Notes: generated by a model not told the origin, from the sequence alone. A stretch of DNA of 13,025 nucleotides from Bacteroidales bacterium (GCA_041584015.1 JBFHES010000120.1:1-13025); one strand, 5' to 3'; numbered from the stretch's first letter, positions 100 to 13,025 are shown. Numbers and translations are program-made.

Positions 100-3000
100 C
101 TACTTCTTGCCGTTTCCTTCAATGGATCCTTGTATGCCTTCCAGTGCTTTACCCAGGTTTTCAATTTCTTCAACCACGCGCCCTACAGCATTACCTCCAT
201 AGTTTTTCATACGCTGACTACGCCTAAATACTTCTCTAATCTCGTTTAAGCGGATGGTTTCCTTATCATTCAGTTTATTGGTGAGTTCCTTAAACTTTAG
301 CAGATTGGCTTCACCATCGCTGGTTAAGGTTTGCGATTCGCTTTCGTAATGGGTATAGACCAAAAGATCCAATTCTTCTTCATTTAAAACCGGCACTACT
401 TTTTCGGCAATCTTGTTCATATCACGATACGAACCTTGTAACTTAAAGCTTGGTTCGGTGCGGTACTCATCGGCTTGCGAGGCAGAATTAATATAGGCCA
501 TGTTCACTTTTGAGATTACATCGCGAACCACAAACAGCTTCTTTAAAACATCCACATATTCGGTCATCTCGGCAGATGAATGTGCTGCCTCAAAGTCTAA
601 TCCTTCGGACGATCCGCTTGCAGCCAGCTGCATTAATGGATAAATATCGTTGTAGCTTTTTTGTACCAAACCATTTAATATCGGATTCGATGTCATGCAG
701 TTCTCCAGGTACGACATGTAGAATTTATCTTCGGTATCGCCAATAATATCTCCAAGGTTATACACATCGGCACGGTTCAGCAACATATCTGGCACCTGAA
801 AACGCTCACCACTCTCGGTGTACGGATTACCGGCCATGATTACACAAACCTTCTTGCCGCGGAAATCGTAGGTTTTTGCCTGTCCCTTATAAACGCCCTC
901 AATCTTACGTTGCGCATCACATAAGGAAATAAACTTCTGCAGAAATTCAGGATTACAATGTTGGATATCGTCCAGATAAATCATGACATTATCGCCCATT
1001 TCGAAGGCCAGAGCCAGCTTTTTAAGTTCTTCGCGTGCCGCTGCATTTTTCACTTCAGCCGGATCGAGCGAGACTACCGTGTGCCCTATTGCTGGTCCGT
1101 TTATCTTCATAAAAATAATACCAAGCCTGCTGGCTATGTATTCCATCAGGGTAGTTTTACCATAACCCGGTGGCGATATCAGTAATAATAAGCCCATAAG
1201 ATCGGTACGTTTGCCCTCACCTGCCACACCAATTTGTTTGGCAAGGTTGGCACCAATTATTGGCAAATAAACATCGTTAATGAGTTTGTTCCTTACAAAG
1301 GAAGACAACACTCGCGGCTTGAATTCATCTAAACGCAAATGTTGCTCAAAGTCAACTATCAATTCTTTTTTCAAATGCTCATACTTTCTGAACTGGGCGA
1401 CATTAATAAGTGTGAAATTCTTTAAGCGATGCATAAAGGCATTAAAGTTTAACAAGTATTCACCGTTCTTCAGAACTGCATGCGAGCCCTTCATTCCCTT
1501 CACATTGATCGATAACTCTATATCAACTACCGAAATTGGGGTGAATGTTTCCGACAGAATCAAGAAAGCACATTCTTCCAATGCATCGCCAAAATTAATA
1601 GCAGACACATGACTATTAAATGCCTTTAGCCAATTAAGGATGAGCGAGAATTTTCGGTGTTCTTCGTGCACCGCCGCAAGCGATTCTTTAAACACGCGGC
1701 TAACTTTCTCTTTTGTTAGATAGGCATTAAAGTCGCGGTAACAAACCGATGCTTCTTTACTAATTACAACATGCTCATCGGCTATAATTTCGTGGAACAA
1801 ATAGTTACCAGCCTCATGGGCAAATAGGAGCGAGAACAAATTGCTTTGCTCACAAAATGCGGCAATCTTTGTCTGTATTTCGGCAATGATATAATTAAAC
1901 TCAGAGCTTTCTGGGAAAATCTTTAGCAATGCTCCTACACCATTCAGCTCGTTGGTAATGGTTTCTTTCCACGCTGCACTGGCAATGTATTTCCAGAAAT
2001 AATTTGCCAGAACGCGGGCTTTAATCGGATAACGGAGTAAGCCAATGTTCTTATAAAAATAAATTAGCTGTTGCAGCATACGCAGTGCATCAGCATCGTG
2101 CACCCCCTTTGCATAGGCCTCGTTTACATGTGCCGACATGTAGCCATGAATAATGGCCATTAGTTGCTCCTCTTCCATTTTTACCAATTGGAAAATTGGC
2201 GGTATCAACTCATCGTTATTATGCTGCTCCATGGCCTGCTGCAAAATGCTGTATGCCATAAACTCGGCACGATAAACAGCCGTATTTTCGGAGATTAAGC
2301 TTTGTCGCCATATGTCTTTGGTAGCATTAAAATCAGGGTCACTTACCTTCTCGAAGAAATTTGTCCCACTTAGATGATAGAACATTTGGTCACTTTTAAA
2401 CACCATGGTAAGCGCCAGCTTTTGCGTATTCACCGAAAATTTATAATCGCCAAATGCTAAAATCTCCTGACCATCAACATACAGTTCCTGCTTGTCTTTG
2501 AGCAAGCGGATTGCCTCTTCTTTAAGTGTCTTCAGCTGCGATTGCAGGTCGTCAGCTTTAACCGTGTCTTTATATGCTGTTAATTCGGCAACAATGCTGC
2601 GGATTTTAGCAATCATCACATCGGCTGCAAAAAAGGCATTTATCTCGCTTACCGAAGTGTAGCTAAATAGCTTGTTTCGCACCGACTTTAATACACGTTC
2701 AGCTGAGCCAAACAATGCATTTATCTTTCTGTCCAGTTCTTCCTTCAGGTTAATTTTCTTTGTTTCGAAGGAATTATATAAATCTTCGCGTCGCTCAGCA
2801 ATTTCATCAAGGTAGGCCGGAAAGTCGGCAAACTTCCCTTCCAGGTCTTCCAACTGAATCATCAACCGCGCCATGTAATCATCACACTTTGCAACGGTAT
2901 CGCACAAATCCAGGTAATTAACCATGCCTTGCTTTATAAGCTTTATCTTGGAATTAAACTCTGCCTTTCCTTCGCGCTGGAGCAACTCTTTTTTCTTATT

Positions 3001-5025
3001 CTTTAACGCTGCAGCTATTTGATTAAACTCGGCATAAAGCGCCGATATGTTTTCAATAATGCGGGTGGTTTCGGTGGCATCATGAATTTTAAGGCTGCCC
3101 ACAATTTCGATTAACATCTCCAGGTTTCCCGAAAATTCAGTTAAATCATCGGCCGTTTTCTCGGCAACTATTACTTTGCCAATGCTGGAGATATTCTCGT
3201 GAAACTCCTGTATTTTTTCCTTGTACGGCAGCAGAGCTTCTTCTTTTAATAAAAACTCCACACAATCAATCGAGGTTTTATCAAGCTGATCAACCAGCTT
3301 TTCTTCAACGGGTAGTAAGAGCTGAAGATCTACGTAGCGCAAGTCCTTTGTTGAGATTACCTCGCCACGCAAACCACGCAACTGGCTTAGATAATCCACA
3401 AAGTTTAGAACCGTTTTATTCGCGTTACCGGCAATTGTATTCAGCAATACATTTACCTTTTCTACAACTACCTGCGTTTGTTCATCGGTGCTTTTGCGAA
3501 TGGCAATTACCTTTTCATACTCATCAATGGCATGCGAAGCTGTTTCCTGAATCGATTTAATGGGCAGGTTCAGCTCAAAGCAATCCTTCTCGTGTAACCA
3601 ATAATGAGAATCAAGAATGTCCGTGGCCAGCTTAAGAATATCAAAGTACAAATTAGAATAGGAGTCTTCCTTGCGCAGCAAAACTAAGATCTCGTGACAC
3701 TCAGCCATTCCTCGCACCAGGTCGTGATTACCAATTTTATACAACATAGAATCGCTCTCTACAGCAATTTCAAAATTTGGACTGATGTAAGGTGTTTGCC
3801 AGATTTGAATGGCATGATGCTTTTTCGCTTCTTCATCCGATCGGAAGAAACACAATTCGCCATTATCGAAAATTGAAAAACCGTTACAGTATAATGGCTT
3901 CTCAACCTTCTGCTCAATGAGGTTATAAGATAGTAAGACATACACCCCGGTGTTGCTATTGAAAAATACATATTGAAAGTCTTCGCCGTTGGGCGATGCA
4001 ATTTTCTGCTCAAAGAGCATGTCTTTTGCCTCGAGCTCAAAAATTTTGTGTTCACCGGTTTGCAGGTAATATCCGTTCGAGAAAATTATTCCATGGCTAT
4101 CGGGCAACAGCACACACGACTCTTCCATGGAATCAATGCGCACGACTTCCTGTACTTTCTGGTTGTACACAAAATAGCGATACAAATCTTCCTGGAAAGG
4201 GCGAATCTTTAATACGATAATCTGGTCGATTATGGCATAATAAATCTCGGCATCATCAAGGGTTTGGGTTTTATGATTCACCTCTTCGGTATAAATCCCC
4301 ATGCCGGAGTCGGTGTTGTTCTCCACCTTTATGGTTAAATCGCCTTCTGTGGTTTCAACAAATACCTTGTCTTCTATTGATATATGTGGATGCTTGCCTT
4401 TGATATGCTGATCGCGGGTGGTGCGTTTCCAATTAAACTCATGCTGGTCGGGGAACACATATTCATGATCGCTGCGATTATCAATATACTCCAGTGTGTT
4501 TTCGCTGATTAGCCACTTGAAGGTTTTAAAATCGTGCTTGCCCTTGCCTACCCTAAAAACCAAATAAAGATAAGGTCCAATTTGGGCAAACTTCTCGAAC
4601 ACCGTATGCTTGTAATACTTATATAGATTCTTGAAATCTTTCTCGAATGCAGCTGCACTCAGGAAGCCTAAGTCCTGCTTAAAAAACTTATGATCCGCAT
4701 ATTGATAAACACTAAAAACATCCGAGACATCCACCTCCGATTTTAGACCAATAGTAACATTATACCCAAATACGAAGAGTTCGCCCAGTGGAAACATATC
4801 CACCGGAATACAATTGTTATCCGTTGAAATACGCTCCGTTGAAATTAGCTTTGTTGAGATGGACCCAAATACTTTTTTGCGATCGGTATTTAGTTGCTGA
4901 AGTTTGTGCTCCAGCCCTTTCCCATCCTTAAGTAAACGGTTTCGTAAAATTTCGTAGGTACCTTGTTCCAGGCTTATATTTTGTCCTAAGTCGTCCTGCG
5001 CCTTAGCTAATTCTTGTTCGGTCAT
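100..5025 (-). CDS. Giant 1641-aa multidomain protein with a single MoxR/AAA_5-class AAA+ ATPase core near the C-terminus. The N-terminal ~430 aa are beta-rich, followed by a ~750 aa mostly helical/coiled region, then the ATPase and a ~220 aa C-terminal tail.
   Basis: Uninterrupted 4926-nt ORF from ATG (5023-5025, reverse) to TAG (100-102, reverse). The translation contains Walker A ISPPGYGKTT, Walker B MIYLDDIQH, and the MoxR/AAA_5-like stretch KKVCVIMAGNPYTESGERFQVPDMLLNRA. This resembles the ATQNPxExxGxYxLPEAQLDRF region of MoxR ATPases. All antisense ORFs inside it are short. Confidence 0.85.
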   Translation of the reverse strand: MTEQELAKAQDDLGQNISLEQGTYEILRNRLLKDGKGLEHKLQQLNTDRKKVFGSISTKLISTERISTDNNCIPVDMFPLGELFVFGYNVTIGLKSEVDVSDVFSVYQYADHKFFKQDLGFLSAAAFEKDFKNLYKYYKHTVFEKFAQIGPYLYLVFRVGKGKHDFKTFKWLISENTLEYIDNRSDHEYVFPDQHEFNWKRTTRDQHIKGKHPHISIEDKVFVETTEGDLTIKVENNTDSGMGIYTEEVNHKTQTLDDAEIYYAIIDQIIVLKIRPFQEDLYRYFVYNQKVQEVVRIDSMEESCVLLPDSHGIIFSNGYYLQTGEHKIFELEAKDMLFEQKIASPNGEDFQYVFFNSNTGVYVLLSYNLIEQKVEKPLYCNGFSIFDNGELCFFRSDEEAKKHHAIQIWQTPYISPNFEIAVESDSMLYKIGNHDLVRGMAECHEILVLLRKEDSYSNLYFDILKLATDILDSHYWLHEKDCFELNLPIKSIQETASHAIDEYEKVIAIRKSTDEQTQVVVEKVNVLLNTIAGNANKTVLNFVDYLSQLRGLRGEVISTKDLRYVDLQLLLPVEEKLVDQLDKTSIDCVEFLLKEEALLPYKEKIQEFHENISSIGKVIVAEKTADDLTEFSGNLEMLIEIVGSLKIHDATETTRIIENISALYAEFNQIAAALKNKKKELLQREGKAEFNSKIKLIKQGMVNYLDLCDTVAKCDDYMARLMIQLEDLEGKFADFPAYLDEIAERREDLYNSFETKKINLKEELDRKINALFGSAERVLKSVRNKLFSYTSVSEINAFFAADVMIAKIRSIVAELTAYKDTVKADDLQSQLKTLKEEAIRLLKDKQELYVDGQEILAFGDYKFSVNTQKLALTMVFKSDQMFYHLSGTNFFEKVSDPDFNATKDIWRQSLISENTAVYRAEFMAYSILQQAMEQHNNDELIPPIFQLVKMEEEQLMAIIHGYMSAHVNEAYAKGVHDADALRMLQQLIYFYKNIGLLRYPIKARVLANYFWKYIASAAWKETITNELNGVGALLKIFPESSEFNYIIAEIQTKIAAFCEQSNLFSLLFAHEAGNYLFHEIIADEHVVISKEASVCYRDFNAYLTKEKVSRVFKESLAAVHEEHRKFSLILNWLKAFNSHVSAINFGDALEECAFLILSETFTPISVVDIELSINVKGMKGSHAVLKNGEYLLNFNAFMHRLKNFTLINVAQFRKYEHLKKELIVDFEQHLRLDEFKPRVLSSFVRNKLINDVYLPIIGANLAKQIGVAGEGKRTDLMGLLLLISPPGYGKTTLMEYIASRLGIIFMKINGPAIGHTVVSLDPAEVKNAAAREELKKLALAFEMGDNVMIYLDDIQHCNPEFLQKFISLCDAQRKIEGVYKGQAKTYDFRGKKVCVIMAGNPYTESGERFQVPDMLLNRADVYNLGDIIGDTEDKFYMSYLENCMTSNPILNGLVQKSYNDIYPLMQLAASGSSEGLDFEAAHSSAEMTEYVDVLKKLFVVRDVISKVNMAYINSASQADEYRTEPSFKLQGSYRDMNKIAEKVVPVLNEEELDLLVYTHYESESQTLTSDGEANLLKFKELTNKLNDKETIRLNEIREVFRRSQRMKNYGGNAVGRVVEEIENLGKALEGIQGSIEGNGKK
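770..1220 (-). other. AAA+ ATPase core of the giant protein (MoxR/AAA_5 class). Walker A is encoded at 1146-1190 and Walker B at 958-984.
   Basis: The reverse complement of 1146-1190 translates GLLLLISPPGYGKTT. The reverse complement of 958-984 translates MIYLDDIQH. The spacing and the downstream hhhhxGNP...LxxR pattern match the dynein/MoxR/McrB-type AAA_5 fold. Domain boundaries are approximate. Confidence 0.7.
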
Positions 5026-5125
5026 TCTTCATATCCTTGAAAATGAAACAAATTGGTTGAAGTGTTTAATGCAGCACCTGGCATGTAAACCAGAATAGCA
5101 TCATCGTTGTGCCAGCCTTAAGCTG

Positions 5126-5156
5126 AAGTCTACAGAGCATGTTGCTCCATAGACTT
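5126..5156. promoter_or_regulatory. Near-perfect 31-nt palindrome / compound hairpin in the 138-nt spacer between the flotillin stop and the giant-ATPase start.
   Basis: AAGTCTACAGAGCA-TGT-TGCTCCATAGACTT has 14-nt arms with a 2-nt internal mismatch (CA/CA) and a 3-nt loop. On the plus strand it is followed by TTAATATTTT. On the minus strand, which is the sense strand for the operon, it is followed by CAGCUUAAGGCUGG with no U-tract. A full intrinsic terminator for the operon is therefore unlikely, and a partial attenuator, processing site or protein-binding palindrome is more plausible. Confidence 0.5.
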
Positions 5157-5163
5157 TAATATT

Positions 5164-7296
5164 TTACAATCCTATTTCGGAGGCAGTTTTACCGTCGAGT
5201 CCAAGTTTGTAAACAGCACTAAGCAAGCCGCTCAACTTTCCTTTGTCTTCTTCACCTTCCATGCCCTGACTCACTTTCATAAGCAAACCAGACAAGGTTA
5301 AACTCTGCAATTCGTCGGCTGATATTCCAAACTGATCTACAAAATGACGGAAGTTTTGCTTAAAGCTATTTCCTTCTGATGAATTAAAAAACTGGTCTTT
5401 CAGATCTCTCAATACTTCAGAGTTATTCAATACGCGATCAACTTTTTTGCCTTGTGTAATGGCGTCGGTAATTTGCTCGAAGAACTTATTCTCACCACCA
5501 ACAATATCAATATTTGCAGACTTAAGCGCCTCTGCAATAACTAAGGCCTGTGAGCTTGCAATATCCTTTTGAATATTGATTTCAGCCAATTCAATCTCTT
5601 TCTCCTTATTAATTCTGATTTTGAATTCCTCGTGCTCTTTTCCTACGCCGTCTAATTTCTTCATGGCATTGGCTTTTTCTTCCAATCCCTCGGCTTCAGC
5701 AACAAACTTCTCTTTCAGCACACGACTTTCCGCCAATCCTTTTTCTTCGTTTGATTTTGCTTTGGCAGTAATTACCTCAGCTTCAGCTTCGCCTTGCTTA
5801 CGTGTAGCATCTGCCTCTACGTTTGCCTTGGCCTCAATACCTTTTGCTTCGGCAACAGCCTTTAATTCAAGTATGTTTGCGTCGGTTTGTCCCTGTTTAA
5901 AGTTCGCCTCTGCTTTGGCCTCAATCACTTGCGCTTCTGACAATCCAATGGCAGCCTCTTCGGCAGCCTTTGCTTCGGCAAGTACCTTTATTGCAGTGGC
6001 CTGCTTAGTTGATGCTTCTTTCTCAGCTTCCGCTTCAATTTGTATTTGATCCGCCTTAAATATGGAAGCTTGTTTCTGTGCCTCGGCAGCTTTAATCTCT
6101 TTCACTAAGCCTTCTTCAGCATCTTTCTCGGCTTGCTTAATGGCAACATGTTTCTCACGTTCTACCTCAGCAAATGCTCGTGTATCTTTAATTTTCTCCT
6201 CTTCATCAACAACTAGTTTTTCAACCATTACACGTTGCTTAATCACATCCTGAATGTTTTTCTTTTCTTCCTCAACGGCTTTCTCTTTTTCGATTTGTGC
6301 CAACGCAACAATCTTTTCCCTTTCGGTAATTTCAAGCTGCTGATCTTTAAGCACAGCTTCAGCTTCAATGGCTTCCGTGCGTTCTTTGTTTTTGGTAGCT
6401 ACAATTACCTGACGAAGTTTATTTTCTTCAGCAATTTGCAATTCTTCTTCAACGGCAATGCGCGCCTGCTGTGCAATTAAACGCTGTTCTTCTTTCACCT
6501 TATCAATTGATGCCTGCTCGCGTGTTTGTGCTGTTTCAATCTCGCGCTGCTGCTGCGCCTCTTTTTCTGCCAGTTGTTTCTCCAGTTCGAGAATAACCTC
6601 ACGAGCCTCAACATCCTGCTTGGTAATAACCTTTTCTTTTTCGCGCTTAATATTGTTTGCCAGTATCATCTGGTTAGCAGTTAACTCAGTAATTTTCTTA
6701 ATACCTTCTGCATCCAGAATATTATTTGCACTTAATGCCTCAATTGGTGTTTGCTCCAAATAGTCAATGGCACAATCATCAAGTACATATCCGTTTAAAT
6801 CGGTGCCAATTGCCTGAAGAATTTCCAGTTTAAATTTCTCGCGAGAATTGTACAATTCCACAAAATCGAATTGCTTACCCACTGTTTTCAAGGCCTCTGA
6901 AAATTTAGCATCAAACAAGTTGATAAGCATCTCCTGATCGGAAGCACGATAACAACCGATGGATTGTGCAACCTGAATAACATCTTCGGTTGTTTTGTTA
7001 ACACGAACAAAGAATGCCACTTTTATATCGGCACGCATATTATCCTTACAAATCAAACCTTCTGATGATGATCTGTCGATTACAATTGTTTTCAAAGTAA
7101 TGTCCATGATCTCCATTTTGTGCAATACCGGAATTACAAAAATGCCACTAAATGAAACTTTCGTTCCACCGGATCCGGTTCGCACAAGCGACTGTCCTTG
7201 CTTTGCTTTCTTATAAGTTTTAATTACCAGAATAATTATTCCGAGAAGAATAACTATGAGGAAAAATCCTGCTGTTATTGAAATGTTACCACCCAT
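5164..7296 (-). CDS. yqiK: Flotillin / SPFH (band 7) family protein of the YqiK type, 710 aa. It has an N-terminal TM anchor, an SPFH domain, and a long E/A/K-rich coiled-coil flotillin region.
   Basis: The N-terminal hydrophobic helix is FFLIVILLGIIILVI. The motifs VRTGSGGTKV, LICKDNMRADIKVAFFVRV and NILDAEGIKKIT line up with E. coli YqiK as I recall it (VRTGLGGQKV, LITKDRMRVDVVVAFFVRV, NAFDAEGLTKLT). About 330 aa of EA-rich heptad-like sequence follow. Its start codon sits 1 nt from the upstream NfeD-like stop. Confidence 0.9.
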   Translation of the reverse strand: MGGNISITAGFFLIVILLGIIILVIKTYKKAKQGQSLVRTGSGGTKVSFSGIFVIPVLHKMEIMDITLKTIVIDRSSSEGLICKDNMRADIKVAFFVRVNKTTEDVIQVAQSIGCYRASDQEMLINLFDAKFSEALKTVGKQFDFVELYNSREKFKLEILQAIGTDLNGYVLDDCAIDYLEQTPIEALSANNILDAEGIKKITELTANQMILANNIKREKEKVITKQDVEAREVILELEKQLAEKEAQQQREIETAQTREQASIDKVKEEQRLIAQQARIAVEEELQIAEENKLRQVIVATKNKERTEAIEAEAVLKDQQLEITEREKIVALAQIEKEKAVEEEKKNIQDVIKQRVMVEKLVVDEEEKIKDTRAFAEVEREKHVAIKQAEKDAEEGLVKEIKAAEAQKQASIFKADQIQIEAEAEKEASTKQATAIKVLAEAKAAEEAAIGLSEAQVIEAKAEANFKQGQTDANILELKAVAEAKGIEAKANVEADATRKQGEAEAEVITAKAKSNEEKGLAESRVLKEKFVAEAEGLEEKANAMKKLDGVGKEHEEFKIRINKEKEIELAEINIQKDIASSQALVIAEALKSANIDIVGGENKFFEQITDAITQGKKVDRVLNNSEVLRDLKDQFFNSSEGNSFKQNFRHFVDQFGISADELQSLTLSGLLMKVSQGMEGEEDKGKLSGLLSAVYKLGLDGKTASEIGL
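5616..6606 (-). repeat. Low-complexity E/A/K/Q-rich coiled-coil coding region of the flotillin gene. On the plus strand it appears as recurring gcttc/gcctc/ttcagc units.
   Basis: The translation is dominated by EAEAEK, AEAKAAEEAA, IEAKAEAN and similar units. The antisense frames give long A/S-rich pseudo-ORFs (for example 5576-6049), which is typical for this composition. Boundaries are approximate. Confidence 0.6.
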
Positions 7297-7297
7297 G

Positions 7298-7975
7298 TTA
7301 ATTGATTTTATATGGTTCTATTAAATAAATTTTCTTGTCTGCGTAATACTCTATCACAAGTCCCTGTTCTCCCTTTTGCATCTCCACTCCTTCGGGCGTT
7401 ATCACATTTATAGTAAACTGTGCATTATCAACAGTTAAACTTGCCTGCCCGAAAGTAGTGTGTGTTGTGCTTAATAGAACAGTGCAAATCTTCCCACTCA
7501 GGCTCTCGTTCCTATCTACCTGTTTGCCTTTTTTAAAGATTTTAACGAAAGGCATACTTAGCACCTTTGACAGAAGCAATGATGCGATCATGGCCGGAAT
7601 CATGATTAAAAGAGCAAGAAAAAAGTTTTCTATGCCCAGCAGGTCATTTGTCCATAAGGTGATCATCCAAAACGGAAGTGCAAAAAAGCTTATGATGATC
7701 ATCACAGGTACTTTGCCCAAATTGAAGAAGGATAATACGGAGTTGAGCCACATAACCGATCCGCTTGCTCCTACACTTGCGTCGGCATCTGCATCCAAAT
7801 CAACATCTGCGTCCAAGTCCACATCAATATCGGCGTCAATATCCACGTCGGCATCAAAAGCATCCAAATCGAAAACGCCAATAATAACAATGATCCAATA
7901 CAGAAACACCAAGATCAATAGCACACTTGGGATAATGTTGGCTGGTGAGAAACAAAATTGAATAAACTCGCTCAT
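7298..7975 (-). CDS. yqiJ: NfeD-like membrane protein of the YqiJ/DUF1449 type, 225 aa. It has N-terminal TM helices, an acidic D-x-D repeat tract, further TM helices and a C-terminal OB-fold-like soluble domain.
   Basis: Hydrophobic helices are VLLILVFLYWIIVIIGV and MIIISFFALPFWMITLW. FNLGKVPVMIIISFF resembles E. coli YqiJ LNIGRLPALVVLCLL (recalled). The beta-rich C-terminus GKICTVLL...GLVIEYYADKKIYLIEP fits the NfeD OB-fold. It sits directly upstream of the flotillin with a 1-nt spacer, which is the canonical yqiJ-yqiK arrangement. Confidence 0.8.
   Translation of the reverse strand: MSEFIQFCFSPANIIPSVLLILVFLYWIIVIIGVFDLDAFDADVDIDADIDVDLDADVDLDADADASVGASGSVMWLNSVLSFFNLGKVPVMIIISFFALPFWMITLWTNDLLGIENFFLALLIMIPAMIASLLLSKVLSMPFVKIFKKGKQVDRNESLSGKICTVLLSTTHTTFGQASLTVDNAQFTINVITPEGVEMQKGEQGLVIEYYADKKIYLIEPYKIN
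7777..7870 (-). repeat. Imperfect short tandem repeat in coding sequence (units of about 6-12 nt, GCRTC..ATC..ACRTC) encoding the acidic tract DLDAFDADVDIDADIDVDLDADVDLDADADA.
   Basis: Plus-strand sequence 7780-7870 reads gcatctgcatccaaatcaacatctgcgtccaagtccacatcaatatcggcgtcaatatccacgtcggcatcaaaagcatccaaatcg. The translation alternates Asp with a hydrophobic or Ala residue for about 31 aa. Confidence 0.8.
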
Positions 7976-8192: not shown

Positions 8193-8894
8193 ATGAGCAA
8201 TCTGATTAAACCACTTATATTTCAATCCGTTTCAAAGCTTGGTTATACCAAACAAGAAACTCAGCAGATCAGAAAACATTTGCTCCAATCGAAACATCTT
8301 CATCGGGACCAATCTGTTTTGCGCGCTTACATTTTCGATCTTGCAAGAACACACATGGAGTCTGACAACAATGATCGCCTCATGAATTGGATGGAGACCT
8401 CCATTAAGATCATCATGCTAAAGGAAAAGGATTTTGAGGAACTTAACGAAGTATATTTCTCGCCTGGCAACACCTGCCGAGATGCCATCATCGGCCAAAT
8501 TGAAAATGCCCGACACAGCATTAAGGTATGTGTTTTCACCATTTCGGATAACAACATTGCCAAGGCACTGAAATCGGCACATCACCGTGGAATTTCAATT
8601 AAAATTATTAGCGATAACGACAAGTGTAACGATAGGGGCAGCGACGTGTACGAATTAGCAGATAACAAGATTCCGGTGAAGATTGATCACTCACATCACC
8701 ACATGCATCACAAGTTTGCCATTTTCGACGATGAGGCATTATTAACCGGAAGTTACAACTGGACCATGAGTGCGGCACAGTACAATCAGGAGAACATACT
8801 ACTTACCCGAAATGAGCATAGCATAAAAGCTTACCGAAAAGAATTTGATCGCTTGTGGGAAGAAATGGATCAAGTGCGTTCCTATAAGTTATAA
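8193..8894 (+). CDS. Phospholipase D superfamily single-HKD nuclease of the Nuc-like endonuclease family, 233 aa. It has an ~85 aa N-terminal helical extension and no signal peptide.
   Basis: The C-terminal 150 aa carry HxKxxxxD(x)6GSxN as H172-H-K174-FAIF-D179-DEALLT-G186-S-Y-N189, encoded at 8706-8759. The surrounding pattern (VYFSPG...IKVCVFTISDNNIAKAL..A..RGISIKIISDN......NILLTRNEHSIKAYRKEFDRLWEE) is typical of Nuc/Zucchini-type PLD nucleases. There is only one HKD motif, so a homodimeric active site is implied. The N-terminus MSNLIKPLIFQSVSKLGYTKQETQQIRKH is not hydrophobic. Confidence 0.85.
   Translation: MSNLIKPLIFQSVSKLGYTKQETQQIRKHLLQSKHLHRDQSVLRAYIFDLARTHMESDNNDRLMNWMETSIKIIMLKEKDFEELNEVYFSPGNTCRDAIIGQIENARHSIKVCVFTISDNNIAKALKSAHHRGISIKIISDNDKCNDRGSDVYELADNKIPVKIDHSHHHMHHKFAIFDDEALLTGSYNWTMSAAQYNQENILLTRNEHSIKAYRKEFDRLWEEMDQVRSYKL
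8706..8759 (+). other. HKD catalytic motif (HxKxxxxDxxxxxxGSxN) of the PLD-family nuclease.
   Basis: cat cac aag ttt gcc att ttc gac gat gag gca tta tta acc gga agt tac aac translates HHKFAIFDDEALLTGSYN. Confidence 0.85.
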
Positions 8895-9147: not shown

Positions 9148-9155
9148 TACTTTTG
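9148..9155 (+). promoter_or_regulatory. Candidate Bacteroidota-type -7 promoter element (TAnnTTTG) for the TPR-LuxR gene.
   Basis: TACTTTTG at 9148-9155 matches TAnnTTTG exactly and lies about 47 nt upstream of the ATG at 9202. A TTGG (9121-9124) about 23 nt upstream could serve as a degenerate -33 TTTG. Confidence 0.45.
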
Positions 9156-9201: not shown

Positions 9202-10776
9202 ATGGCAATTTTATCCATCAATAGAAAATCTATCACAATAGCATTATTTATATTCCTGTTAGGAACTTTATTTATCAGCTGCGACTCTACTGATTCAAAA
9301 TCAATTGAGACAACTAACAGCGAGCCTACCTTAACATCGGAAGAATACTTAAACGTAATTAATTCAACATCCGATATTGATAGCATCATCGCCTATAGTG
9401 AGCAGTTTAATCCGCTTATTGATGAAACATCACATGAAGATCAAGCCTATTATTACTCTAACCTGGGTGTAGTTTACTACCAGCATTCGCTCTACGATGA
9501 AGCGGGTACATTCTTTAAGCATGCACAGGAAAGCTATGCTCAATTAAAAGACAGCGCCCGAGCCAACCACATGCGCATGAACATGGCAGCCATGAAAGAG
9601 CTAAATGGCAATTACAATGATGCTGTAGAAGTATATCTTGATGTAATTGAATATTTCTATAACCACAAAGACAGCCTACAGTTAGCCAATGCCTACTCCA
9701 ATTTGGGTGTGGCCTATGAGCAAATGGAGCTGGCTCAAAAATCGATTGAATATCACAAGAAAGCCCTAACAATTCGCAGGGCAATTAAGGACACCATAAA
9801 CATTGCCTATTCATATAATAACATTGGAGTTGTGTTTACCGAAGTAGTGGAGAACAATGACTCCGCATTGGTTTACTATCAAAAGGCTTATGCGATTTTC
9901 ACGCCCCAAACAACGCCCTGGGAAACCGCTACAACGGCAACCAACATCGGACATATTCATCTAAATAATTCTGAATATGAAAACGCAAAATTACATTTTG
10001 ATGTGGCTTATCATATTTTCGATTCGCTAAACATTGAGCAGGGACTAGCTGAAACGATGCGTAGTTTTGGTCAACTGTACTTTGCACAGGGCAAAGATGA
10101 TGATGCAATTGATGCGCTAACAACATCATTAAATCAGAACCAAATTTCGGGAAATATTAAGGAGGTACTTGAGATAAATAAGATTCTATCAAAAATATAC
10201 ATTGCCAAAGGAAACTATAGCAAGGCTATTGAAACCATGCAGATTGCCAATCATCTGGATGATTCATTACTCAACATAGAAAAGCAGAAAGCTATTGCTG
10301 AAATGGAAACCAAACATCAGGTAAAGCAAAAGAATAAAACCATTGAGGTGCTTAGACTGGAAGATGAGTTGGACAAAAAAAGGATAAGAAATCAGACCAC
10401 ACTCATCATTCTGCTAAGTGTAATTTTTGGACTCATTATCATGCTCCTGGTTTTTCGCTCCCGACAAAACAGATTAAAGCAAAAGCAGCTGCGCATTGAA
10501 TTGCACAACTACATTCTTCGCATTGATGAAATGAAATCCGAATTGCAGAAGAAAGATGAAAAACCGGAATCAAGCGATGATGTATTTGCTAAATATGATT
10601 TATCAAGCCGGGAGATAGAGGTGCTGAAACTTATTAGCAAAGGTTATAAAAACTTGCAAATTGCTGATCAATTATTCATTTCGCAAAACACGGTTAAAAC
10701 CCATATTAAAAATATTTATTTAAAGCTCGACGTAAAAAACCGAGTGGAAGCCTTAACCAGGATAAGCACTAACTAA
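9202..10776 (+). CDS. Membrane-spanning one-component regulator, 524 aa. It has a lipoprotein-type signal peptide, an extracytoplasmic TPR-repeat sensor domain, a single TM helix, a cytoplasmic coiled coil and a C-terminal LuxR/GerE-family HTH.
   Basis: The N-terminus MAILSINRKSITIALFIFLLGTLFISCDS has a signal peptide with Cys at position 27. TPR-like repeats recur with the pattern Y.N.G..Y...Y..A...(Y/F).KA (for example AYYYSNLGVVYYQHSLYDEAGTFFKHA, ANAYSNLGVAYEQMELAQKSIEYHKKA, AYSYNNIGVVF). The TM helix TTLIILLSVIFGLIIMLLVF is encoded at about 10396-10458. The C-terminal LSSREIEVLKLISKGYKNLQIADQLFISQNTVKTHIKNIYLKLDVKNRVEAL is a textbook LuxR/GerE HTH. Confidence 0.85.
   Translation: MAILSINRKSITIALFIFLLGTLFISCDSTDSKSIETTNSEPTLTSEEYLNVINSTSDIDSIIAYSEQFNPLIDETSHEDQAYYYSNLGVVYYQHSLYDEAGTFFKHAQESYAQLKDSARANHMRMNMAAMKELNGNYNDAVEVYLDVIEYFYNHKDSLQLANAYSNLGVAYEQMELAQKSIEYHKKALTIRRAIKDTINIAYSYNNIGVVFTEVVENNDSALVYYQKAYAIFTPQTTPWETATTATNIGHIHLNNSEYENAKLHFDVAYHIFDSLNIEQGLAETMRSFGQLYFAQGKDDDAIDALTTSLNQNQISGNIKEVLEINKILSKIYIAKGNYSKAIETMQIANHLDDSLLNIEKQKAIAEMETKHQVKQKNKTIEVLRLEDELDKKRIRNQTTLIILLSVIFGLIIMLLVFRSRQNRLKQKQLRIELHNYILRIDEMKSELQKKDEKPESSDDVFAKYDLSSREIEVLKLISKGYKNLQIADQLFISQNTVKTHIKNIYLKLDVKNRVEALTRISTN
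10600..10773 (+). other. LuxR/GerE-type helix-turn-helix DNA-binding domain at the C-terminus of the TPR regulator.
   Basis: The L(S/T)xRExEVL ... IAxxLxISxxTVKxHxxNIxxKL pattern is present in full. Confidence 0.85.
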
Positions 10777-11580: not shown

Positions 11581-11626
11581 GCCCCTGCGACCTACTCGAA
11601 AAATAAAAAATCACAAAATATACCCT

Positions 11627-13025
11627 ATGAAAACAAAACACTACCTTAAAATTTTTGCCATTCTAATGGCCTTACCAATGCTGTCATTTTCACAAGCAGA
11701 CTTTATTCAAACATCGACGGAGGACTTTCGCTTTGGTGTACAAGAGAATGTTATCACAAGCACCGATCAGGTACAATTAGCTACAAAAGCTGTTGGCATC
11801 AGCGTTTGGAGTTCAACTGGCAATTTACCAATCAACCTGTCTGGTCATAGAATGACAACCTGGAACGATGATATTTTTCTCGTTGGCGGACATACTGGTA
11901 GTTCGTATAGCGACCAGGTATATCGTGCCCTTACTCCAACACAGGGGTTAATCTCATGGGATGCAATGGGAACATTACCTGTTGCAGTGAAAAATCATGA
12001 ACTGTTAGCCACAGGCAAACACCTGTATGTAATTGGAGGTGATGTAAACGGTACTGCAACAGCTGAAATATATTCAGCTGAAATAAATGAACTTGGTAAC
12101 ATTTTTAGCTGGCATCAGTGCAATACAAGCTTACCCGCTGGTTTAGCATCGCATACTGCAACCTATGTAAACGGATATATGTACATAGCTGGCGGAAGTA
12201 GCTTAACAAGTGGTAATACAGCTACCAGCACAGTTTACGTTGCCCAAGTGCTTGGCGGCGGCGACTTATCAAGTTTTACAGCTACAACATCCTTACCTGC
12301 TGCACTTAGTGCACATACTGCTTTTGCATACGATGGTAAATTGTTTATCGTAGGCGGAAAAAACAACTCAGGAGTTTTACAAAGCCAGGTTTACTACTCC
12401 ACAGTAGGAGCCGATGGTTCATGCGGTCCATGGGCAAGTGCCGGTAACTTCCCAACAGGAATTAGCAACCACGCAACAGTATGCAGCAATGGAATGGCAA
12501 CTGTAATTAGCGGTGATATAGGTGGATCAGTGCCTTTAAGCAGAAAGGCATATACCTGTGATCTTAGCAATTTCCCGATACTCACCTGGACAATGTCGTC
12601 AAACGAACTAACCAACCGACGAAAGGATGGACAGGTAGTTTGCGCCAACGACCAGTTAATATTCACAGGAGGCGAAGAGTTAAGCGGATTACCTAATAAT
12701 GAAACCCGCATTTCACTTCTATCAATGGCTACTCAGCTATGCGAAACCGGAACTTTTATTTCAAATCCGTTTTTTGTCGGAAGCGAGAAAAATATTGTTT
12801 CATACAGCTATCAACTACAAAGTGCAGCAGGTGCAGGTAGCACTGCTTATTACAGACTTGCAGGATTCGATGGCGAATGGGGCAACTGGATAAATGCTGG
12901 TTTACCAACAACAGTATCAATCAATCAAAACAAGTCATATTTACAATATCGTTTCCATTTCACTTCGAATGGATTGACCAATGTTACTTTGTTAGATGCA
13001 TCAATTAATGTTTCTGGATTTACCG
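11627..13025 (+). CDS. Secreted Kelch-repeat-like six-bladed beta-propeller protein. It is 5'-complete and 3'-truncated by the window end, with at least 466 aa read.
   Basis: The ATG is at 11627-11629, and I translated the frame to the window end without meeting a stop. The signal peptide is MKTKHYLKIFAILMALPMLSFSQA. There are six blades of about 50 aa, each ending in an hhhhGG motif: DIFLVGGH, HLYVIGGD, YMYIAGGS, KLFIVGGK, ATVISGDIGG and QLIFTGGE. They are preceded by (S/N)HT/HA motifs typical of Kelch/galactose-oxidase-type propellers. The six-frame track omits it because the ORF is open-ended. Confidence 0.7.
   Translation, partial: MKTKHYLKIFAILMALPMLSFSQADFIQTSTEDFRFGVQENVITSTDQVQLATKAVGISVWSSTGNLPINLSGHRMTTWNDDIFLVGGHTGSSYSDQVYRALTPTQGLISWDAMGTLPVAVKNHELLATGKHLYVIGGDVNGTATAEIYSAEINELGNIFSWHQCNTSLPAGLASHTATYVNGYMYIAGGSSLTSGNTATSTVYVAQVLGGGDLSSFTATTSLPAALSAHTAFAYDGKLFIVGGKNNSGVLQSQVYYSTVGADGSCGPWASAGNFPTGISNHATVCSNGMATVISGDIGGSVPLSRKAYTCDLSNFPILTWTMSSNELTNRRKDGQVVCANDQLIFTGGEELSGLPNNETRISLLSMATQLCETGTFISNPFFVGSEKNIVSYSYQLQSAAGAGSTAYYRLAGFDGEWGNWINAGLPTTVSINQNKSYLQYRFHFTSNGLTNVTLLDASINVSGFT

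Follow-up and report, generated by a model that had tools for sequence, protein, structure and literature searches.

Genes coding for a short NfeD-like membrane protein and for a flotillin lie side by side in the yqiJ-yqiK locus of Escherichia coli and the yuaF-floT locus of Bacillus subtilis. A larger operon was described in PMC11237479 (mSystems 2024; bioRxiv 10.1101/2020.09.24.301986), the available text of which reports a conserved gene set in which a CesT/Tir-PspA pair is accompanied by three further proteins: a YqiJ/YuaF protein with three transmembrane (TM) helices, a protein combining Band-7, coiled-coil and flotillin regions, and an AAA+ ATPase with a beta-propeller and a coiled coil. 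According to the same text, a gene encoding a PLD (HKD) protein is found with the operon in some Proteobacteria, and abbreviated operons lacking PspA are widespread. PspA was also linked with Band-7/FloT and NfeD proteins in PMC9239133. The analysis presented here concerns an arrangement of this kind located at positions 100-7975 of a 13,025-nucleotide (nt) sequence from a Bacteroidales bacterium (GCA_041584015.1 JBFHES010000120.1:1-13025), which in its whole length is referred to as the window; homologous loci fetched for comparison are designated by L-numbers. Together the three genes specify a single membrane module that is conserved and inherited chromosomally, and the window represents an ordinary abbreviated instance of a three-gene association that is already known.

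The listing and translation of open reading frames (ORFs) confirmed three co-directional genes on the minus strand, at 7975-7298 (225 amino acids, aa), 7296-5164 (710 aa) and 5025-100 (1,641 aa). The TAA stop codon of the yqiJ-like gene occupies positions 7300-7298 and is separated by the single base 7297 from the ATG of the flotillin gene at 7296, while the flotillin and ATPase genes are separated by a spacer of 138 nt (5026-5163). The coordinates, the 1-nt gap and the length of the spacer given in the original prediction, made from the sequence of the window, were hence reproduced. The distance between the yqiJ-like and flotillin genes in related loci has a median of 13 nt. The window agrees with the operon described in the available text of PMC11237479 in its three core proteins and their order, in the architecture of the ATPase (a helix, a propeller, a helical region and an AAA+ module) and in the optional PLD gene; it corresponds to the abbreviated form without the CesT/Tir-PspA pair, it also lacks a gene for the HTH-protease repressor, and nothing essential differs. 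The gene string exemplified in Table S3 of that paper by Dokdonia donghaensis (ANH61663.1) was also recovered here in Flavobacteriia. The original prediction regarded the ATPase as an unrecognised third member of the NfeD-flotillin pair, a claim that does not stand, as the operon, with its occasional PLD gene, is already present in that text. What is added here relative to it is the assignment of the AAA+ module to a MoxR-like fold, the invariant D-D Walker B motif, the recurrent intercistronic hairpin, the occurrence of the PLD gene outside Proteobacteria and the near-absence of the module from mobile elements. With E. coli yqiJ-yqiK and B. subtilis yuaF-floT the window shares homologous proteins (as tested against those of E. 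coli), gene order and tight coupling of the first two genes. It differs from the E. coli locus in that no ATPase gene lies downstream of yqiJ-yqiK and that YqiK comprises 553 aa as compared with 710 aa of the window flotillin.

The 710-aa protein (5164-7296, minus strand) is, judging from sequence comparison, a clear homologue of E. coli YqiK, with a BLASTP E-value of 6e-47 and 31% identity over 463 aa, and a profile built from 24 orthologues aligned with YqiK with an hhalign probability of 100%. The window protein alone gave no match in Pfam, NCBIfam or PDB sequences, and no Pfam match even at E <= 10. Because these searches were empty, the identities were established by aligning the proteins directly with YqiK and YqiJ of E. 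coli. The Pfam Band_7 family was reached by 3 of the 24 orthologues (best E 3.3e-13), and the coiled coil of QmcA was the sole PDB match of the 24-orthologue profile. NCBI and JGI label the orthologues as 'flotillin family protein' or YqiK. The protein consists of an N-terminal TM helix, a divergent SPFH/Band-7 domain, a long coiled coil rich in Glu, Ala and Lys, and a conserved block at the C-terminus, the last residues of which are IDIVGGE. The SPFH region shows strong homology to YqiK. Its divergence is too great for a match to Pfam Band_7, and in this the window differs from the NfeD-flotillin pairs of E. coli and B. subtilis. The basic stretch KTYKKAK, read from the sequence directly after the TM helix, places the bulk of the flotillin in the cytoplasm according to the positive-inside rule.

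The 225-aa protein (7298-7975, minus strand) is a short NfeD-like membrane protein of the YqiJ/YuaF type, with three predicted TM helices and a C-terminal soluble beta domain read from its sequence. Its match to Pfam YqiJ_N remained below the cut-off (E 6.6e-4, 20.3 bits against 23), but a profile of 20 orthologues could be aligned with E. coli YqiJ over the full length (hhalign 96.4%, E 1.4e-9), and the C-terminal 70 residues of the two proteins correspond to each other. YqiJ_N was matched by 8 of the 20 orthologues and NfeD by one (E 0.0048). The identification of the first two genes as relatives of yqiJ and yqiK, on which the original prediction was built, is supported by the direct profile alignments. 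An acidic loop of D-x-D repeats (aa 36-66, window 7778-7870), the length of which differs greatly between orthologues, connects TM helices 1 and 2. The positive-inside rule would place this loop in the cytoplasm, and it could possibly bind cations or a basic partner.

The conservation of the gene order was assessed in a scan with one genome per species, in which at least 589 genomes contained a relative; the 80 best loci were retrieved, and the synteny count was restricted to the 65 loci having at least 3.5 kb of upstream DNA. A flotillin gene on the same strand was located upstream of the ATPase gene in 62 of these 65 loci, and a YqiJ-like homologue was detected upstream of the flotillin in 55. 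The loci came from six phyla or groups (Bacteroidota, Planctomycetota, Verrucomicrobiota, Kiritimatiellota, Desulfobacterota and Clostridia). The order was also kept at 28-37% identity, in Natronoglycomyces (Actinomycetota) and two further distant lineages, as well as on a Streptomyces plasmid (Actinomycetota) and the Pseudomonas plasmid pQBR103. The synteny asked for by the original prediction is therefore present in other genomes, including distant ones. A functional link between the three genes is accordingly regarded as highly probable. The ATPase gene is more loosely attached than the tightly packed yqiJ-flotillin pair, as anything from -31 to 2,379 nt separated the end of the flotillin match from the start of the ATPase gene, and this interval often contained one to three small genes. 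This variable distance, and the strong hairpin found between the two genes here and in most relatives (described below), would fit an adjacency without functional meaning, in which the ATPase gene is an independent unit downstream of yqiJK-like genes. Such an explanation is extremely improbable, since a chance order and orientation would not survive across six phyla and into lineages of about 30% identity, and the 28-59% range of identity argues against a single recently transferred island.

Some of the intervening or adjacent genes were identified. In some Bacteroidota, the interval from the flotillin to the ATPase gene contains an inserted gene that codes for a DUF559 (Vsr-like) endonuclease (L010 818-1258, also L013 and L017). 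Genes for ankyrin-repeat proteins, which may serve as adaptors, adjoin the module in L034 (1753-2217), L071 (3569-4036) and L086 (1-807 and 2416-3978). A second ATPase paralogue considered for L034 and L071 was rejected, as the gene in question encodes an ankyrin-repeat protein of 154 aa.

Clustering of the neighbouring genes over 83 loci revealed three recurrent extra partners and no others: PspA (19 loci), CesT_Tir_1 (16 loci) and a divergently encoded XRE-family helix-turn-helix (HTH) repressor, with or without an S24 domain (18 loci). The extended form, in the order repressor (divergent), CesT, PspA, YqiJ, flotillin and ATPase, occurred in 16-19 of the 83 loci. A further combination was noticed on the megaplasmid pQBR103 (L094, Pseudomonas fluorescens SBW25), where the module closes a string of ten genes at 84.4-97.6 kb, encoding YjfI, PspA, a rhomboid protein, DUF2491, DUF350 and DUF1190 proteins, glutathionylspermidine synthase, a hypothetical protein, an SPFH protein and the ATPase. 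This string unites on one megaplasmid both classes of PspA operons distinguished in the available text of PMC11237479.

The three proteins are 45-65% identical across whole phyla and their architecture is stable. No phage record contained the module, and among 72,556 plasmid records it was found in 13, including several chromosome-sized replicons or megaplasmids. The module is thus inherited chromosomally and nearly absent from plasmids. These data bear on the idea, raised as an alternative in the original prediction, that the module is a nucleotide-dependent conflict or anti-phage system, in which the flotillin and the YqiJ-like protein would sense the perturbation of the membrane by a phage, the AAA+ protein would transduce the signal and the PLD protein, where present, would act as the effector. 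In the window, the PLD gene (8193-8894, plus strand) is divergent from the module and encodes a single-HKD protein of 233 aa (PLDc_2 E 1e-30) without a signal peptide, in agreement with the divergent cytoplasmic PLD neighbour noted earlier. It showed weak matches to NucT, DrmC and DpdK, far below the cut-offs, and homologues adjoin the module in L012, L031, L072 and L083. Together with the divergent repressor of a kind common in phage-related switches, the presence of a homologue on pQBR103 and the frequency of large multidomain ATPases in defence systems in general, this similarity is what an anti-phage function would draw on. The function is nevertheless unlikely. In PADLOC, neither the flotillin nor the YqiJ-like protein was matched and the ATPase had only weak matches, confined to the P-loop-containing AAA+ region (E 8.5e-4 and 3.9e-3), the genes flanking the module were varied and mostly of ordinary cellular functions rather than defence, and the degree of identity and stable architecture across phyla are unlike those of fast-diversifying defence genes. 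The literature search found no paper tying flotillin to anti-phage defence.

The PLD gene was present in about 5 of 84 loci, and PLD relatives exist without the module: a metagenome scan with the PLD protein gave five loci, one of which (L089) belongs to the same organism (99-100% identical), whereas the other four were devoid of the module, and no module was located within 10 kb of the relatives in L090 and L093. The PLD protein was therefore rejected as a fixed component of the module. In two loci from Bacteroidota, the PLD gene is co-directional with the genes for PspA and a DnaJ-domain protein (L012, 15462-17086) or with the HTH/S24 repressor gene (L031, 1317-2729); this shared orientation suggests co-regulation with stress genes rather than with the ATPase. 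The association was seen here in Bacteroidota and Verrucomicrobiota and, in the window, with divergent orientation, as compared with the PLD genes reported from some Proteobacteria in the available text of PMC11237479.

The third gene (100-5025, minus strand) encodes a protein of 1,641 aa with more than 5,300 homologues, a family to which NCBI gives the name 'DNA repair ATPase'. Pfam searches identified DUF3686 (E 3.5e-183), DUF7902 (E 9.6e-25; aa 596-680, window 2986-3240, inside the helical middle region), and AAA and AAA_5 barely above their cut-offs. No TM segment was read from the sequence, and the protein is therefore taken to be soluble and cytoplasmic; it also lacks a protease domain. 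In the AlphaFold2 (AF2) model of aa 1-500 (predicted local distance difference test score, pLDDT, 86), a helix of about 50 residues (aa 3-53) is followed by an all-beta region (aa 59-410) and further helices. The top Foldseek matches of this model were propellers (for example the WD-repeat domain of DCAF1, Sec12, the Dos1 propeller and Cdh1), with low template-modelling scores, and the all-beta region, which forms the core of DUF3686, is accordingly described as a predicted beta-propeller (window 3796-4851). The model of aa 1193-1641 (pLDDT 80) contains an AAA+ module, the alpha/beta core of which (aa 1278-1423, window 757-1194) includes the Walker A motif SPPGYGKT (1153-1176), the Walker B segment VMIYLDD (967-987) and a beta-hairpin preceding the sensor-1 strand. 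Two side observations concern the family: in the protein P0402 ankyrin repeats are fused to the ATPase, and in a Rubripirellula metagenome-assembled genome (L058, 9917-15232) the gene is divided into two ORFs of 776 and 887 aa, which points either to a pseudogene produced by a frameshift or to a faulty assembly.

The profile of the ATPase family matched no PDB sequence at E <= 1e-3, and the search with the single sequence gave weak matches around Walker A to Cdc48/p97 and RuvB; because sequence searches gave none or weak matches, the AAA+ clade was judged from the predicted structure. The predicted fold was closest to the MoxR ATPases CbbQ and NorQ and fits the helix-2-insert/pre-sensor-1 hairpin group, the nearest known structures being those of MoxR proteins. 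The label of a MoxR-class ATPase used in the original prediction holds for the fold and not for the sequence, in which the generic AAA and AAA_5 matches lie near the cut-offs and the Walker B motif is not D-E. Both aspartates of this motif, LDDIQH, were invariant in 20 of 20 diverse family members, and the motif resembles that of DnaA rather than the usual D-E form. The D-D motif hints, as far as can be read from the sequence, at slow or switch-like ATP turnover. MoxR proteins such as CbbQ, NorQ and RavA share with the window ATPase the best structural matches, the hairpin before sensor 1 and the AAA_5 match just above the cut-off; they normally act with a VWA partner and have about 250-500 aa, as against the 1,641 aa of the window protein with its propeller, long helical region and D-D Walker B.

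The family name and the resemblance of LDDIQH to the DnaA motif would suggest that the large protein is a DNA-repair ATPase, with the flotillin context serving to tether a damage-induced DNA-processing activity to the membrane. The names used by NCBI and Pfam ('DNA repair ATPase' and 'ATPase involved in DNA repair') point in this direction, as do the LexA-like character of the HTH and S24 repressor linked at 18 loci, the Nuc-like PLD gene sometimes adjacent and the DUF559 endonuclease gene inserted in some loci. This role is very unlikely. No DNA-binding or nuclease domain was found in the ATPase with Pfam or NCBIfam, the match to RuvB_N covering only the Walker A stretch and lying below the cut-off; it is membrane proteins and PspA, and not repair genes, that recur as conserved partners, and the nearest folds are those of protein-remodelling MoxR ATPases. 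The literature search found no paper supporting the 'DNA repair' name, which is probably misleading.

The same structural relatives led to another possibility. CbbQ and NorQ activate or mature specific client enzymes, and the window ATPase could likewise be a MoxR-type maturation chaperone, inserting a cofactor into, or activating, some membrane client in flotillin microdomains and not acting on the flotillin or PspA themselves. Bacterial flotillins are generally thought to organise client proteins (PMC9239133), which is in line with this possibility. It is considered doubtful, as no conserved client or VWA adaptor was noted in the neighbourhoods, where only YqiJ, flotillin, PspA, CesT/Tir and the HTH repressor recur, in an analysis that included no VWA-specific search.

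The spacer between the flotillin and ATPase genes contains a stem-loop of 14 bp with a 3-nt loop (5156-5126, minus strand; about -18.5 kcal/mol), which begins 8 nt past the flotillin stop codon. The fold of the 5026-5163 spacer had z = -3.5, and none of 200 shuffled sequences was equally stable. A terminator scan revealed no candidate with a U tract. The absence of a clear terminator, claimed in the original prediction, was thus confirmed with regard to a U-tract site, but the strong hairpin has to be added. Direct flotillin-ATPase spacers of 40-320 nt in orthologous loci had z < -2 in 17 of 24 cases as compared with 57 of 206 (28%) of the control spacers, i.e., other co-directional spacers of the same loci (Fisher p = 4.7e-5). 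A long and often perfect stem-loop after the flotillin stop recurs in unrelated lineages (L004, L007, L016, L028, L035, L055, L057, L070, L080, L083 and others); the hairpins of L004, L028, L035 and L083 are provided with typical U tracts, whereas others, including that of the window, are not. The hairpin is a candidate partial terminator, attenuator or stabiliser of the mRNA 3' end, and it is read as a recurrent device lowering the expression of the ATPase relative to the YqiJ-flotillin pair or separating it from that pair. The promoter scan was directed at sigma-70-type sites, Bacteroidota promoters being outside its scope, and the exact Bacteroidota -7 motif TAnnTTTG was not found in either intergenic region. 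The transcription units were delimited by neither of these scans.

On balance, and with moderate confidence, the ATPase is proposed to use ATP for assembling or remodelling structures of flotillin and PspA during envelope stress. The remodelling part of this reading rests on the nearest motor relatives being protein-remodelling chaperones, on the conserved partners being only membrane-scaffold proteins and on the cytoplasmic location of both the flotillin and the ATPase. The link with envelope stress is based on the extended form with PspA, CesT and the repressor, and on the set of YjfI, PspA and glutathionylspermidine synthase on pQBR103. The flotillin, with a single N-terminal helix as its anchor and with the SPFH domain and coiled coil in the cytoplasm, would presumably assemble into a large oligomeric scaffold at the cytoplasmic side of the membrane. 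The YqiJ-like protein would be closely coupled to it as a partner in the membrane, in the manner of yqiJK and yuaF-floT. The MoxR-like AAA+ module of the ATPase is probably ring-forming and would hold the beta-propellers on long helical arms. We infer that the ATPase docks on the flotillin scaffold and, where it is present, on PspA. Slow or regulated ATP turnover, as suggested by the D-D Walker B, could then drive the assembly, remodelling or dismantling of membrane-protective assemblies under envelope stress, and, owing to the hairpin downstream of the flotillin gene, the ATPase is probably expressed at a lower level than the YqiJ-flotillin pair. The idea of a flotillin-anchored AAA+ remodeller, put forward in the original prediction, was reached independently from comparative genomics in PMC11237479, as its available text indicates.

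Several observations weigh against this proposal. The window contains no gene for PspA or CesT/Tir. The ATPase gene was found without a nearby flotillin gene in L025, L027 and L044. The D-D form of Walker B could mean, judging by the motif, that hydrolysis is weak. The strong hairpin, together with the U-tract terminators in some relatives, indicates that the ATPase gene may be transcribed separately. No VWA family was noted among the precomputed Pfam matches, available for a handful of annotated loci, or among the annotated recurrent clusters, in the absence of a search specific for VWA. Finally, the literature search retrieved no experimental data on the ATPase family, no paper on DUF3686 and none in which a 'DNA repair ATPase' is brought together with flotillin.

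HflK/C-FtsH, with which the original prediction compared the module, and the pairs Vps4-ESCRT-III and PspF-PspA combine an SPFH or ESCRT-III-like scaffold with an AAA+ machine, and the likeness to the window is an analogy of principle; homology of Vps4 or PspF to the window ATPase is not implied. The cage formed by HflK/C lies in the periplasm, and FtsH, a membrane protease, belongs to the classical AAA clade. In the window, by contrast, the flotillin and the ATPase are both cytoplasmic, no protease domain is present and the AAA+ clade is a different one, which makes the comparison with HflK/C-FtsH a loose one. PspA is a bacterial relative of ESCRT-III. The giant ATPase could tentatively be seen as an ATP-driven machine dedicated to the assembly or disassembly of flotillin scaffolds and PspA, a functional counterpart of Vps4 for structures of SPFH proteins and PspA that repair the membrane, with the conserved hairpin setting the ratio of scaffold to motor. 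The machine was proposed in outline in PMC11237479, according to its available text.

The remaining part of the window lies beyond the PLD gene. A gene at 9202-10776 (plus strand) encodes a regulator composed of TPR repeats, a TM segment and a LuxR(GerE) domain, with matches to the Bacteroidota-named families FimS and BT3442. About 50 nt upstream of its start the exact Bacteroidota -7 promoter motif TACTTTTG is located at 9148-9155 (plus strand). A gene for a small secreted protein is also present on the plus strand. The right end of the window, gene-free at first sight, is occupied by a long ORF (11626-13025, plus strand) that runs past the end of the window and encodes a signal peptide followed by repeats that look by eye to be of the Kelch type. 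Rfam and tRNA scans of the window gave no matches.

The role of bacterial flotillins is unsettled, and a deeply conserved, dedicated ATPase partner offers an experimental handle on the maintenance of the membrane by flotillin and PspA. If it is true that the giant protein acts as an assembly/disassembly machine, it would be the first defined enzymatic partner of bacterial flotillins.

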